A program made the translations under genes and the position numbers. A stretch of DNA of 13,242 nucleotides from Calditrichia bacterium (GTDB taxonomy: Bacteria > Calditrichota > Calditrichia > RBG-13-44-9). The notes beneath the pieces are model-generated. The model was given only the letters and a program-made list of their open reading frames with translations. It did no database searches and was not told the origin of the DNA. Where the stretch lies: contig JARRQT010000088.1 of the NCBI GenBank assembly GCA_037381445.1, forward strand, positions 1 to 13,242. The letters are read 5' to 3'. Of the stretch, positions 8,474 to 13,242 are shown piece by piece (position 1 is the stretch's first letter; each line of letters opens with the position of its first letter).

Positions 8474-8926
8474 CTACCATTTTAATTTGACCACTGCTTT
8501 GACAATCTGAGACAATGGTATGGTGATTTCTTCTTTTTTAAGCTGTAAAACAATGTCGTTTTCATTTGCTGATTTAAGTGTGCCGATATAATCTTTCCGG
8601 CCTTCCTCCGTTTCGAATAAAATCCGCAAATTCCGTCCGATATTCTTCCTGAATTGCCATGGTTCAATCAGCGGACGGTTGGTGCCGGGAGAAGAAACTT
8701 CCAAACGGTAATGGCCGGGAATGGGATCGTTAATATCGAGCACATCCTCTATATTTCGGGTCAGTTCGGTAATTTCTTCCATGGTTATTCCCGCTTCGGT
8801 GTCAGCATAAACGGAAAGAACCTGATTATTTCGGCCTCCCCGCAGTTCAATATCCACGAGAAACATACTCGTGTTCTGGAACAGCGGCTGAATTAAATCT
8901 CTGATTTTTGCTATTTCCTCTTTCAT
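8474..8926 (-). CDS. rimP: Ribosome maturation factor RimP
   Basis: 150 aa; LVDIEL, VYAD...GIT, LD..DPI...YRLEVSSPG..RPL; first gene of the operon, upstream of nusA. Confidence 0.96.
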   Translation of the reverse strand: MKEEIAKIRDLIQPLFQNTSMFLVDIELRGGRNNQVLSVYADTEAGITMEEITELTRNIEDVLDINDPIPGHYRLEVSSPGTNRPLIEPWQFRKNIGRNLRILFETEEGRKDYIGTLKSANENDIVLQLKKEEITIPLSQIVKAVVKLKW

Positions 8927-9225: not shown

Positions 9226-10302
9226 ATGCCCGAATCAAAAAAATATTCAGAAGCCACAGGTTGTATCCATATCCATTCGATATATTCCGACGGCACCGGC
9301 ACCATCCCAGGAATTGCCACAACGGCGGAAGAGGCCGGGCTGGATTTTATCATGATGACGGACCATAATAACCTTCGGGCCCTGAAAAACGGGGAAGAGG
9401 GCTGGTACGGTCGGGTGATGGCAATTATCGGATATGAAATTAATGATATCGATGACAGCAATCATTATCTGGCGTTCGGGCTGGAAGAGGAGGTTAATAA
9501 AAACTTGCCTGCGCCGGAATATGTGAGGCGTGTAAAGAAAAACGGCGGCTTTGGAATCATTGCTCATCCGGATGAAAAACGCCATGCGCTTCCGGAACAC
9601 CCCTCCTATCCGTGGACGGCATGGGATAGCCAGGACTACCAGGGAATTGAAATTTGGAACCAGATGTCCGAATGGATGGAGGGACTGACACCATGGAACA
9701 AGCTGTGGCGTTTTCTGAATCCGCGTAAATCCATCATTGCACCCGTTTCGCAGACGCTGAACCGCTGGGACGAAGTGAATAAAAAGCGGAAAGTAATGGG
9801 AATCGGCGGCGTGGATGCCCACGCTCACAGATATAAAATGCTGGGTGGACTTATTCAGGTGACCGTTTTTCGTTATAAAGTACAGTTCAAAACCGTGCGA
9901 ACCCATCTGTTGCTTTCCGAACCGCTGGAGCCGGGAATGGCTCCCGAAAAGGCCAAAAAACTGGTGTTTGATGCACTTTTAAACTGCAGGATTTTCGTGT
10001 CCAATTATTTCAATGGCGATGCCAGGGGATTCCGGTTCGAAGCAGAAAATGGCAATGGTTCCGTCGGAGTGGGCAACTCACTGGAATTGGGGCCTGAAAC
10101 CCGAATCCTGGTCGCCTTGCCCCTGCCTGGCCTGATTCGGCTCATCCTTAACGGCCGAACTGTACAGGAGAAGTACGGGGAAAGCGAAACATTCTCCGTC
10201 CAAAAGCCCGGTTTGTACCGGGTGGAAGTGTACCGGAAAAACCGCGCATGGATATTTTCCAACCATATCAGGATTGAAGGTGAACCGGAAAAACTGGATT
10301 AA
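9226..10302 (+). CDS. PHP-domain metal-dependent phosphoesterase/hydrolase (CehA/McbA-like) with a C-terminal beta-rich domain
   Basis: PHP metal ligands: GCIHIHSIYSDG, LDFIMMTDHN, GYE, NHY, IIAHP, GIEIWN, GGVDAHAH; C-terminal YRVEVY...WIFSNHI. ATG at 9226 preferred over the TTG at 9199. Confidence 0.85.
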   Translation: MPESKKYSEATGCIHIHSIYSDGTGTIPGIATTAEEAGLDFIMMTDHNNLRALKNGEEGWYGRVMAIIGYEINDIDDSNHYLAFGLEEEVNKNLPAPEYVRRVKKNGGFGIIAHPDEKRHALPEHPSYPWTAWDSQDYQGIEIWNQMSEWMEGLTPWNKLWRFLNPRKSIIAPVSQTLNRWDEVNKKRKVMGIGGVDAHAHRYKMLGGLIQVTVFRYKVQFKTVRTHLLLSEPLEPGMAPEKAKKLVFDALLNCRIFVSNYFNGDARGFRFEAENGNGSVGVGNSLELGPETRILVALPLPGLIRLILNGRTVQEKYGESETFSVQKPGLYRVEVYRKNRAWIFSNHIRIEGEPEKLD

Positions 10303-11245
10303 ATACCTGGATTATTTTTACCTCTCCCGTCCAATGCTTTTTTTCCCGGGATGGAGCACCCTGCTGGCCGGGTATCTTGTCTCTGCAGGAGGAATTTACG
10401 GATGGTCTGAAGCGGGCTGGAACGGATTTTTCATCAACCTCTGGCGGGATCAAATTGCCCTGGGTATGATTGCCTTTATGGCGGCCATGGGCGCCAGTTT
10501 CATTATGAATCAGTTGCACGATGTGGAATCGGACCGGGAGAACAATAAACTGTTCCTGCTGGGAGAGAATTATGTCACTAAACCGGCGGCGATGGTGGAG
10601 AGTATCCTGTTGATTATTTTCTCTCTGGGCCTGAGCTCACTGATCAACAGCAGAATCGTTTTTTTGAATTTTCTGTTTATCCTGGTAACTGGATATCTAT
10701 ATAACTTTCCACCTTTCCAGTATAAAAACCGTCCCTTGTTGGGACTTTATTTAAACATTTTTATGGGCTGGATTGCCTTTGCCCTGGGCTGGTCGCTGCT
10801 TCGGCAGCTGGACTGGTCGTTCTTCATAAGTTCGCTCCCCTATGTGTTCTTGAATACCGGCCTCTATCTGCTGACAACTATGCCCGATGCCGATGGAGAC
10901 AGGGCGTCTGATAAGAGCACTTTTTGTGTCCGTTACGGTTTGAAAACCACCATTCGTTCAAGTATGGTGTTTTATTTCCTTTCCATTTTAACAGGAATGT
11001 TCCTGGGAGATTATCTCATCCTGAGCATCGACCTGCTTGTGGTCTACTGGGCCATCAGGTTGATACTCGGCCCATCGGTGGCCAATGCCATAAAAATGAT
11101 AAAAATGTCCATTTTCTTTTTTTCGGCATTGATAAGCCTTAAATTCCCGCTTTATTTTTTGCTGATGCTTATTGTTTTTTTCGTGACGAAATACTATTAT
11201 CGGGTTCGGTTTCAGTTCGATTACCCTAATTTCCGGGGGGAATAA
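10280..11245 (+). CDS. UbiA-superfamily intramembrane prenyltransferase
   Basis: LSRP at the N-terminus, first acidic motif NQLHDVESD (NxxxDxxxD), YNFPPFQYK, second motif PDADGD (DxxGD), about 8-9 hydrophobic helices. GTG at 10280 has AGGA 6 nt upstream (TTG at 10274 is an alternative); overlaps the PHP stop. Confidence 0.9.
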   Translation: MNRKNWIKYLDYFYLSRPMLFFPGWSTLLAGYLVSAGGIYGWSEAGWNGFFINLWRDQIALGMIAFMAAMGASFIMNQLHDVESDRENNKLFLLGENYVTKPAAMVESILLIIFSLGLSSLINSRIVFLNFLFILVTGYLYNFPPFQYKNRPLLGLYLNIFMGWIAFALGWSLLRQLDWSFFISSLPYVFLNTGLYLLTTMPDADGDRASDKSTFCVRYGLKTTIRSSMVFYFLSILTGMFLGDYLILSIDLLVVYWAIRLILGPSVANAIKMIKMSIFFFSALISLKFPLYFLLMLIVFFVTKYYYRVRFQFDYPNFRGE

Positions 11246-11248
11246 AAG

Positions 11249-12451
11249 ATGTATTTAAGAAATCAGATAGATTCAAGTTATGATATTGTCGTAGTTGGTG
11301 CGGGCCCAGCCGGTTCCATGGCAGCTTGGCAGGCGGCGCGAATGGGGGCAAAAGTCCTGCTGCTGGAAAAAGACCGTGAGGTGGGAACGCCGGTCCGCTG
11401 TGCCGAAGCAGTTGGCAAGTCTGGCCTGGAAGCGCTGATAGAACATCCCGCACCTGCTCACTGGATTGCTTCCGAAATCCGTAAATTCCGCCTGTTTGCA
11501 CCGGACGGTACGCCAGTATATGTTAATATCAATGAAATCGGATATGTTCTCCACCGCCGTCTATTCGATTACGATCTCTCGCTAAAAGCGACCCGTTCCG
11601 GTACCACATTGCTTACCCATGCCCAGGTTTTTGATGTTATTAAATCCGATGGCTATGTGACCGGGGTAAAAATCAGTCTGGATGGGGAAAATCTCGAGGT
11701 CCACGGGCGTGTTGTCATTGCCGCCGACGGGGTGGAATCCAGGGTGGCGCGCTGGGCCGGCATCGATTCCGGCACGCCGTTGAGGGAAATGGAAACTTGC
11801 GCCCAATACACGCTGGCGAATATCGGTATTGAACCGGATACCTGCGATTTTTATTTTTCCCGGGATTTTGCTCCCGGGGGGTATGCCTGGGCTTTTCCCA
11901 AGGGAGAAGGGACTGCCAATGTGGGACTGGGTATCTCGGGAAATTATGCCAGAAAGAAATCACCGGAGGAATTCCTGGAAATTTATCTGGAAAGATTCTT
12001 CCCAACCGGTTCAGCTGTTTCCAGAACTGTGGGCGGGGTGCCGGTGGATAAAACGCTGCGGGATATCGTTGCCGATGGTTTTATGATTGTTGGGGATGCC
12101 GCGCATCAGACCAATCCCATTTCCGGCGGCGGTATCATTTCCGGAATGACGGCGGGAAAGATCGCCGGAGAAGTTGCCGCCAAGGCCATTCAAAATGGCA
12201 CTGTGAACCGGAAGGCTCTGCTTCCATATGCCCGTCAATGGCATAAGAATGTGGGAAAGAGCCATCAGCGGTATTACCGTCTGAAGGAGGCACTGATGAA
12301 ATTTGAGGATTCGCAGTTTAACTATATCGCGGCGGAATACCTGAAACTGGACGAAAACAAACGTACCCTTATGAACCTGTTCAAAATTGCCTTCAAGAGC
12401 AATCCCGCCTTTTTGATTGATGTCATTAGGCTGTTTTCATCTTTTTCTTAG
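11249..12451 (+). CDS. Geranylgeranyl reductase family FAD oxidoreductase, resembling archaeal digeranylgeranylglycerophospholipid reductase
   Basis: YDIVVVGAGPAGS (FAD binding), EKDREVGTPVRCAEAV, IAADGVESRVARWAG, APGGYAWAFPK (PxxYxWxFP signature), ANVGLG, VGDAAHQTNPISGGGI; starts 3 nt after the UbiA stop. Confidence 0.9.
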   Translation: MYLRNQIDSSYDIVVVGAGPAGSMAAWQAARMGAKVLLLEKDREVGTPVRCAEAVGKSGLEALIEHPAPAHWIASEIRKFRLFAPDGTPVYVNINEIGYVLHRRLFDYDLSLKATRSGTTLLTHAQVFDVIKSDGYVTGVKISLDGENLEVHGRVVIAADGVESRVARWAGIDSGTPLREMETCAQYTLANIGIEPDTCDFYFSRDFAPGGYAWAFPKGEGTANVGLGISGNYARKKSPEEFLEIYLERFFPTGSAVSRTVGGVPVDKTLRDIVADGFMIVGDAAHQTNPISGGGIISGMTAGKIAGEVAAKAIQNGTVNRKALLPYARQWHKNVGKSHQRYYRLKEALMKFEDSQFNYIAAEYLKLDENKRTLMNLFKIAFKSNPAFLIDVIRLFSSFS

Positions 12452-12779: not shown

Positions 12780-13242
12780 ATGTTTATTGACCTCCCGCAA
12801 TTTATCGGGTTTGTGGCATTAATTCTCTGGATAGATTTTTTCCTGCTTTCGGTGTCCAGAAAATTGAAATTCCCCGATTATCTGGCCCACATTCTTACCG
12901 GATTCGTATTTGCCGCAATTGTGGGAAACCTGCATTCCTATTTTTCCGTTCCACTGGTGACAGAGTTTGCGCAGATTTCCGGTCTGTTCAAGGGACTCGT
13001 TTTGCGCTCGCCGTATTTTTCCTGAATGTTGAATTAATCTTCTGGACATTCCTTATTGTACCCTTTGCCTCTCTGGCCACGGATGTGGGCGGCATTGTCA
13101 CCGGCGATCATTTCAGCAGGGAAGAAATGCGAATGAAATTTCTGGATTATATCCAGTTTTCAGTGGGACAGGAGGTGCTGGCGGTGATACTGTTTATTAT
13201 TTCGGCAGTTGTCATGGATGTTCGCGTAGGGCAGTTCTGGAC
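12780..13242 (+). pseudogene. Frameshifted multi-pass membrane protein, possibly a divergent cation:proton antiporter (CPA2/KefB-like); runs off the window
   Basis: The first frame (12780-13025) gives LSVSRKLKFPDYLAHILTGFVF, like the CPA2 N-terminus. From about 13000 the -1 frame is open to the end: FALAVFFLNVELIFWTFLIVPFASLATDVGGIV...SVGQEVLAVILFIISAVV. Confidence 0.5.

Follow-up and report, generated by a model that had tools for sequence, protein, structure and literature searches.

The whole stretch of DNA analysed here (the window) is contig C88, in its entire length of 13,242 nucleotides, of a Calditrichia genome that is 91.85% complete. It carries three plus-strand open reading frames without internal stops, which encode a PHP-family metallophosphoesterase with a C-terminal beta-sandwich (9226-10302; 358 aa), a UbiA-superfamily membrane prenyltransferase, here called UbiA-X (10280-11245), and an archaeal-type FAD-dependent geranylgeranyl reductase (GGR) that resembles digeranylgeranylglycerophospholipid reductase (DGGR) (11249-12451; 400 aa). 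A preliminary description of this DNA had presented them as three co-directional genes, the first two overlapping and the third 3 nt further on, divergent from an unambiguously bacterial operon, and these coordinates were confirmed. The most likely start of UbiA-X is the GTG at 10280, where its orthologues and the Atlas record also begin; it has an AGGA 6 nt upstream and gives an overlap of 23 nt with the PHP gene, and the alternative TTG start at 10274 gives an overlap of 29 nt. The gap between the UbiA-X stop codon and the ATG of the GGR gene is 3 nt, and this spacing suggests that the three genes are translationally coupled. Promoter and terminator scans at the locus gave no signal above the shuffled level.

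UbiA-X is placed in the UbiA superfamily by PF01040 (67.7 bits; cut-off 34.2) and by the UbiA fold of its AlphaFold model (predicted local distance difference test score, pLDDT, 89.7). The closest structure is AfUbiA (4tq4; Z 25.1, root-mean-square deviation 3.1), and the next matches are ApUbiA and MjDGGGPS, a digeranylgeranylglyceryl phosphate (DGGGP) synthase (Z 21.0, root-mean-square deviation 4.2). The residue set for magnesium and diphosphate (R, NxxxDxxxD, Y..K, DxxxD) is present, and at least 90% of a varied set of 87 members retain R19, N79, D83, D87, Y143, K151, D205 and D209, so UbiA-X is probably an active prenyltransferase. Their equivalents in AfUbiA are needed for the binding of geranyl diphosphate, according to the available text of PMC4106721. 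AfUbiA (A. fulgidus, 4TQ3) shares these donor-binding residues with UbiA-X and also has no equivalent of D180 of MjDGGGPS, but the two are only ~19% identical, and the acceptor of AfUbiA is not established in the available text of the same report, so that the likeness gives UbiA-X no function.

UbiA-X passes no named UbiA subfamily cut-off in NCBIfam. The host genome has six UbiA matches, namely CyoE on contig C112, a MenA that exceeds its cut-off (344 bits) inside the men operon on C68, a DGGGP synthase-like protein on C72, the window gene, a match on C338 and one fragment; because CyoE, MenA and a DGGGP synthase-like UbiA are encoded elsewhere, the window UbiA is an extra one. The C338 gene (L005, G000:C338:2640-3695) encodes a divergent UbiA among glycosyltransferase-like genes and lies below every named cut-off. 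Like MjDGGGPS (6M31), UbiA-X has a UbiA fold and the equivalents of N62, D66, D70, Y125, D183 and D187; unlike it, UbiA-X has no RPxN start, carries Q for D63 and T for K179 and D180, and has an extra YxxPPxxxK loop and a C-terminal RFxxxYP tail. The position of D180 is occupied by T202 in the window protein and by T, L, S or G in 19/19 UbiA-X rows of the alignment, against D in 10/10 DGGGP synthase rows, and D180A strongly lowers the activity of MjDGGGPS, as stated in the available text of PMC9385802. The two DGGGP synthase models of NCBIfam give UbiA-X 25.7 and 18.8 bits (cut-offs 353 and 296) and the C72 paralogue 173 and 199 bits, under the cut-offs but far closer. In a tree of 45 rows, which had two haloarchaeal proteins as archaeal references, did not include LyeJ/CrtEb, homogentisate prenyltransferase (HPT) or AfUbiA and left out the mis-extracted UbiA rows L274, L278 and L286, a branch (98/96) sets all 19 UbiA-X rows apart from the rest, including DGGGP synthase (10 rows), MenA and ChlG. 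MenA was rejected as an identity (22.9 bits; cut-off 264), and so was ChlG/BchG (TIGR01476, 32.4 bits; cut-off 212.3), whose rows make up a separate clade (100/100). The first motif of UbiA-X, NQxxD, resembles that of homogentisate prenyltransferases; the HPT model gives 27.8 bits (cut-off 226), and HPT was rejected too. Model scores, motifs and tree all speak against a DGGGP synthase; by these measures UbiA-X is neither a DGGGP synthase nor a MenA and belongs to an uncharacterised clade of its own.

A single-sequence search of the PDB with UbiA-X gave no match, and a profile search ranked AfUbiA (E 2e-24) and ChlG (2e-23) before DGGGP synthase (5e-21). A search with a profile of 20 UbiA-X sequences, counted up to E 1e-30, gave 330 clusters (50% identity). 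Look-alike clusters in the Atlas come from Bacteroidota, WOR-3, Fibrobacterota and Zixibacteria, which is a lead, and ten distant clusters bear generic names only and no useful taxonomy. At the distant metagenome loci (L188-L267), rpmB precedes the UbiA-X gene in 33/80 and a tetratricopeptide repeat protein follows it in 27/80; a few loci lie near secretion-tail or C25 peptidase proteins. No fusion of UbiA-X to PHP or GGR was found among 7996 longer candidates, which is weak evidence, and a search of plasmids for a distant UbiA-X gave no match.

The reductase passes TIGR02032 (221.9 bits; cut-off 158.8), and its best solved structure is the T. acidophilum DGGR (3oz2; E 2.8e-67 over 350 residues). 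It contains GAGPAG, PVRCAE (with C52), RRLFD, PGGYAWAFP, VGD and GGG, and thus all archaeal GGR motifs (GxGxxG, Cys, RxxFD, PxxYxWxFP, xGD) listed in the available text of PMC10821996. Among the equivalog models those of archaeal DGGR score best, in keeping with the archaeal type that the preliminary description had assigned, with 243 bits for the Thermoplasmatales DGGR and 187 for a second DGGR against 126 for BchP/ChlP and 61 for MenJ. All three archaeal DGGR scores are under their cut-offs (NF041160, 243/780; NF041080, 187/580; NF041385, 95/700), and we infer that the protein nevertheless works like a DGGR. MenJ (NF045655, 61.3 bits; cut-off 700) and BchP (126 bits; cut-off 343; a separate branch in the tree) were rejected. 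The preliminary description had held that its reading would fall if both enzymes nested in menaquinone clades and no new lipid appeared on expression; UbiA-X lies outside the MenA clade and the reductase far under the MenJ cut-off, so that this refutation does not apply. The window gene is the only clear GGR in the host genome. A different GGR was seen in G027 (L301, G027:C128:111500-118500), where it comes after a UbiA gene and two methyltransferase-like ones, an arrangement that, judged by motifs, presumably resembles a tocopherol-type cluster; in other genomes of family f3, a GGR of this type has its own ferredoxin (L302, L304).

Relatives were sampled as 61 Calditrichia genomes, 17 from the host family and 44 others, and as 121 genomes of the phylum of G061, for which KSB1-like is a working label and in which the unpublished G139 enters the tallies only. 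Orthologue counts leave out weak paralogues (E >1e-60 for UbiA, >1e-70 for GGR, >1e-13 for ferredoxin). UbiA-X is present in 52 Calditrichia genomes, PHP in 32 and the GGR orthologue in 24; the KSB1-like counts are 118, 29 and 102, with 24 close PHP orthologues when matches with E >1e-90 are left out. UbiA-X may be near-universal in KSB1 and Calditrichota and widespread in bacteria of the Fibrobacterota-Chlorobiota-Bacteroidota (FCB) group. The GGR orthologues of both samples form one branch (96/99), in a tree whose long branches and single archaeal row do not show an archaeal origin.

The contiguous PHP-UbiA-X-GGR trio occurs in 13/17 host-family genomes (11 on one contig, two split by contig ends), so its arrangement is not due to chance. 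It occurs in 0/44 of the other Calditrichia genomes, and the conservation that the preliminary description had looked for therefore holds for the family but not for the rest of the class. Other Calditrichia show the order ridA, lipid kinase, DUF5683, YfiM, PHP, purF, UbiA-X, ferredoxin, GGR, ftsY, rimO, GWxTD, of which parts were lost family by family, and a longer block, PHP-purF-UbiA-ferredoxin-GGR-PgsA-like-ftsY, is shared with KSB1-like bacteria. Forty KSB1-like loci were picked for long contigs out of the 118 UbiA-X matches. Ferredoxin and GGR follow UbiA-X in 29 of them, never one without the other, a CDP-alcohol phosphatidyltransferase (PgsA-like) is present in 32 and purF in 38. The order UbiA-X-ferredoxin-GGR is found in two phyla, with little or no space between the genes, and together with the PgsA-like gene it makes up the conserved core, UbiA-X-ferredoxin-GGR-PgsA-like; the trio in the window is thus a remnant of the longer block, left after purF, the ferredoxin and the PgsA paralogue had been lost or had moved elsewhere.

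The ferredoxin has not vanished from the host genome. An orthologue (66% identical) with 2x[4Fe-4S] lies outside the window on C140, in a run of genes (L182, G000:C140:9529-15523) that reads metallo-beta-lactamase-fold (MBL) hydrolase, glycerophosphodiester phosphodiesterase-like gene, ferredoxin, ispH, queG, dxs. In family f4 the ferredoxin stands between UbiA-X and GGR in 5/5 fetched loci. Of the 61 Calditrichia genomes, 24 carry an orthologue of the GGR and 24 one of the ferredoxin; 23 carry both, and the two that carry only one of them are 81% and 84% complete. Together with the 29/40 KSB1-like loci, these observations point to a dedicated ferredoxin partner, and the pattern resembles the GGR-ferredoxin pair of M. 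acetivorans as reviewed in the available text of PMC9385802. Like the archaeal DGGRs (3oz2; M. acetivorans), the host GGR has the fold family, PxxYxWxFP, the active-site Cys, RxxFD and a co-inherited small 2x[4Fe-4S] ferredoxin. Unlike them, it belongs to a bacterial clade and scores under the archaeal equivalog cut-offs, and in the host family the ferredoxin gene has moved beside ispH.

The PHP protein is placed in its family by PF02811, just over the cut-off (28.7 bits; 26.4), and by its trinuclear metal ligands. The full ligand set (H15, H17, D22, H47, E71, H80, H114, D197, H199) is invariant in 16 orthologues. The closest folds, BVU_3505 (3e38) and TM0559 (2anu), are both of predicted function only, and the CehA/McbA model NF038032 is not passed (70.4 bits; cut-off 80), although two orthologues carry that label. 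PHP look-alikes are present in Chloroflexota and Thermodesulfobacteriota; a search of plasmids gave no match and one of viral contigs a single partial match.

The window holds no geranylgeranylglyceryl phosphate synthase (GGGPS), glycerol-1-phosphate dehydrogenase (G1PDH), CarS, polyprenyl synthase or ferredoxin, as had been described; outside it, the host genome does have genes for GGGPS, for the ferredoxin and for two polyprenyl synthases. The GGGPS on C6 exceeds the TIGR01769 cut-off and belongs to Group II, the DGGGP synthase-like UbiA lies on C72, and CdsA, PgpA, PgsA, the PgsA paralogue, dxs, ispH and three PlsY-family matches are also present. Two near-identical pgsA starts are found on the short contigs C383 and C390, possibly through strain mixing in the assembly. 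GGGPS together with a DGGGP synthase-like UbiA was found in 41/41 high-quality Calditrichia genomes, and GGGPS in 119/121 KSB1-like genomes. GGGPS, DGGGP synthase-like UbiA, GGR and polyprenyl synthase, the gene set of FCB ether lipids, thus stand in one genome, and with the conserved UbiA-X-ferredoxin-GGR-PgsA-like order they bear out the isoprenoid-lipid context proposed earlier. Of the three enzymes for which the preliminary description had proposed a genome-wide search, GGGPS turned up, but neither CarS nor G1PDH did.

It is already published that FCB bacteria have the potential for ether lipids and possess archaeal-like GGRs. GGGPS and DGGGP synthase are reported for all 12 surveyed FCB phyla, with Caldithrix listed, in the available text of Coleman et al. 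(PMC6431249), and a set of GGGPS, DGGGP synthase and GGR without CarS and G1PDH is reported for Ca. Cloacimonetes in that of Villanueva et al. (PMC7852524). The host is like Ca. Cloacimonetes in having GGGPS, a DGGGP synthase-like UbiA, an archaeal-type GGR, polyprenyl synthases, genes of the methylerythritol phosphate (MEP) pathway and CdsA/PgsA/PgpA, and in showing the same two gaps. Unlike in the FCB set, its GGGPS and DGGGP synthase-like genes are not adjacent, and unlike in that set as far as these texts describe it, its GGR is tied to an extra UbiA that has a clade to itself, to a ferredoxin of its own and to a PgsA paralogue. No description of the UbiA-X clade or of the ferredoxin-GGR-PgsA-like module was found in the open-access literature, subscription papers not being covered, and no isoprenoid ether lipid data for cells were found in the open-access literature. 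Bacteriochlorophyll and chlorophyll synthesis (BchG/ChlG with BchP/ChlP) offers a comparable pairing of a UbiA prenyltransferase gene near a GGR gene, with a similar N-terminal PxW, but the ChlG model gives UbiA-X 32/212 bits and the GGR is not BchP-like (126/343 bits). To the published picture, the window adds a test of the PHP link and the co-occurrence of the ferredoxin after its relocation.

The explanation that we favour, with about even confidence, is that UbiA-X and GGR are the surviving part of a UbiA-X/ferredoxin/GGR/PgsA-like module that would add and then saturate isoprenoid chains on archaeal-style ether phospholipids, with PHP probably an optional neighbour. The scheme has substrates and products that we infer, and genes, families, motifs, order and co-occurrence as observed. 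Geranylgeranyl diphosphate (GGPP) derived from the MEP pathway would pass to the GGGP synthase on C6 and the DGGGP synthase-like UbiA on C72, yielding the diether digeranylgeranyl glycerophosphate; the head group would be attached by CdsA, by PgsA or its paralogue and by PgpA, with these enzymes standing in for CarS; and saturation of the chains would fall to the window GGR, reduced by the 2x[4Fe-4S] ferredoxin of C140. UbiA-X would act as another O-prenyltransferase, likewise Mg-dependent, that transfers geranylgeranyl onto some other lipid alcohol, such as the glycerol of a head group or a mono-acyl glycerophosphate; this acceptor is the weakest inference of the scheme. Saturation of isoprenoid ether lipids by GGR and ferredoxin is likely, action of UbiA-X in the same lipid route has somewhat better than an even chance, and a part for PHP in it is doubtful. 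A bolder version, in which UbiA-X is a third ether-forming prenyltransferase that puts geranylgeranyl onto an acyl-glycerophosphate or head-group glycerol, the ferredoxin-GGR pair saturates the product to a hybrid archaeal/bacterial lipid and PHP is an accessory phosphatase, appears improbable.

Several observations weigh against the favoured explanation. Neither UbiA-X nor GGR needs the other, as 30/52 UbiA-X-bearing Calditrichia genomes have no GGR orthologue, and G004 (99% complete) and G006 keep GGR without UbiA-X. With ridA, purF, ftsY and rimO, the block amounts to a super-operon of housekeeping genes, so that inertia may account for the adjacency. CarS and G1PDH were not found in a genome that is 91.85% complete, and the egsA cut-off was passed by 0/61 Calditrichia genomes, 11 of which have weaker matches. 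GGRs are promiscuous and accept many head groups, according to the available text of PMC9385802. The co-occurrence of ferredoxin and GGR is confounded by ispH, which like them was found only in the Calditrichia families f1 and f4 (16/61) and which the ferredoxin abuts; because of this restriction, the co-occurrence may in part reflect a common ancestry or lifestyle, and two families against six are not independent samples. The same restriction suggests that the other families use another isoprenoid route. As 9/24 ferredoxin genomes show no ispH, including the single-contig G012, in which ispH is gone from the site and the ferredoxin stays, retention of the ferredoxin after loss of ispH favours the link to GGR. 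Another view, which we regard as unlikely, is that UbiA-X is a general FCB housekeeping prenyltransferase whose acceptor is unrelated (an aromatic ring, an envelope anchor or, as for ChlG, a carboxylate), that GGR acts on DGGGP-derived lipids alone and that the two are neighbours only through conservation of the whole ftsY super-operon. Such a view fits the 30/52 Calditrichia genomes that have UbiA-X but no GGR orthologue and the 80 distant metagenome loci, many of them short, where 0/80 have a GGR, ferredoxin, PHP, PgsA-like or GGGPS neighbour, a result that also counts against the favoured explanation; it further fits the 11/40 KSB1-like loci that have no ferredoxin-GGR beside UbiA-X (in four of these genomes the pair is elsewhere), the profile search that ranks AfUbiA and ChlG at or above DGGGP synthase, the ChlG-like PxW and the missing equivalents of D63, K179 and D180. 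Against it stand the close-packed UbiA-X-ferredoxin-GGR order in two phyla, the PgsA-like gene that follows UbiA-X even in 10 of those 11 loci, and the separate clade of ChlG.

The preliminary description had joined all three genes in one self-contained pathway, in which PHP takes off or alters a phosphate head group once the product has been prenylated and saturated, and this now seems quite improbable. PHP orthologues were never found without UbiA-X (32/32 in Calditrichia, 24/24 in KSB1-like genomes; 56/56), the two were lost together in G004, they are in direct contact in three lineages (f1, f6 and three KSB1-like genomes), PHP moved with UbiA-X and GGR to the rimP site in the host family, and its metal-ligand set is complete. 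Against this, UbiA-X is so common (85-98%) that its co-occurrence with PHP says little. PHP reaches only 29/121 KSB1-like genomes against 102 for GGR and 118 for UbiA-X, and is absent from about three quarters of those that bear GGR; 0/25 genomes from three Calditrichia families have it (UbiA-X persists in 20 of these 25), and it occurs in 10 Calditrichia genomes without a GGR orthologue. Among the 40 KSB1-like loci, PHP is found in nine, and purF separates it from UbiA-X in 9/9; in G108 it stayed, abutting ferredoxin-GGR, and UbiA-X is on another contig. The host already has PgpA, and the look-alikes in Chloroflexota and Thermodesulfobacteriota also count against the pathway. PHP is probably an optional neighbour that is missing from most relatives. 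A saturated-tail quinone (MenA/MenJ logic), which had also been proposed, or a tocopherol-like product (HPT/ChlP logic) made by UbiA-X and GGR is very unlikely: the NQxxD motif, the men operon of the genome and the tolerance of GGRs for varied head groups speak for it, but the scores are low (MenA 22.9/264, HPT 27.8/226, MenJ 61/700 bits), the true MenA lies in the men operon on C68, and the conserved neighbour is a phospholipid head-group transferase.

The remaining parts of the window flank the trio. The rimP-like gene (8474-8926, minus strand) is the first of the divergent operon rimP-nusA-infB-rbfA-truB-ribF, named from translations and, for ribF, by NCBIfam model score, and its junction with the trio is specific to the host family. 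Downstream lies the 5' remnant of a Na+/H+ exchanger-like gene (12780-13025, plus strand), which in relatives links the block to ftsY; it is broken after 81 codons (window 12780-13242), and contig C300 holds the 3' portion of the gene and also ftsY. At the other end, ribF breaks at about residue 266 and its frame continues into unrelated DNA of 62-68% GC (window 1-~1420), of which there is no second copy, all contigs of the genome being at most 57% GC. This stretch is probably a chimeric contig end that does not touch the trio.

Whether bacteria make archaeal-type ether lipids naturally, and of what structure, bears on the lipid divide and on how far archaeol can serve as a biomarker of archaea. 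Two ether bonds are covered by the published FCB set, which leaves unexplained an extra conserved prenyltransferase with links to a head-group transferase and a ferredoxin-dependent reductase. The favoured explanation predicts saturated chains in families with ferredoxin-GGR and unsaturated chains in families without it, and it reduces the module to a short, testable list of genes (UbiA-X, ferredoxin, GGR and the PgsA paralogue), to which PHP adds little unless an assay links it. If the hybrid lipid were real, it would bridge the lipid divide inside one molecule.

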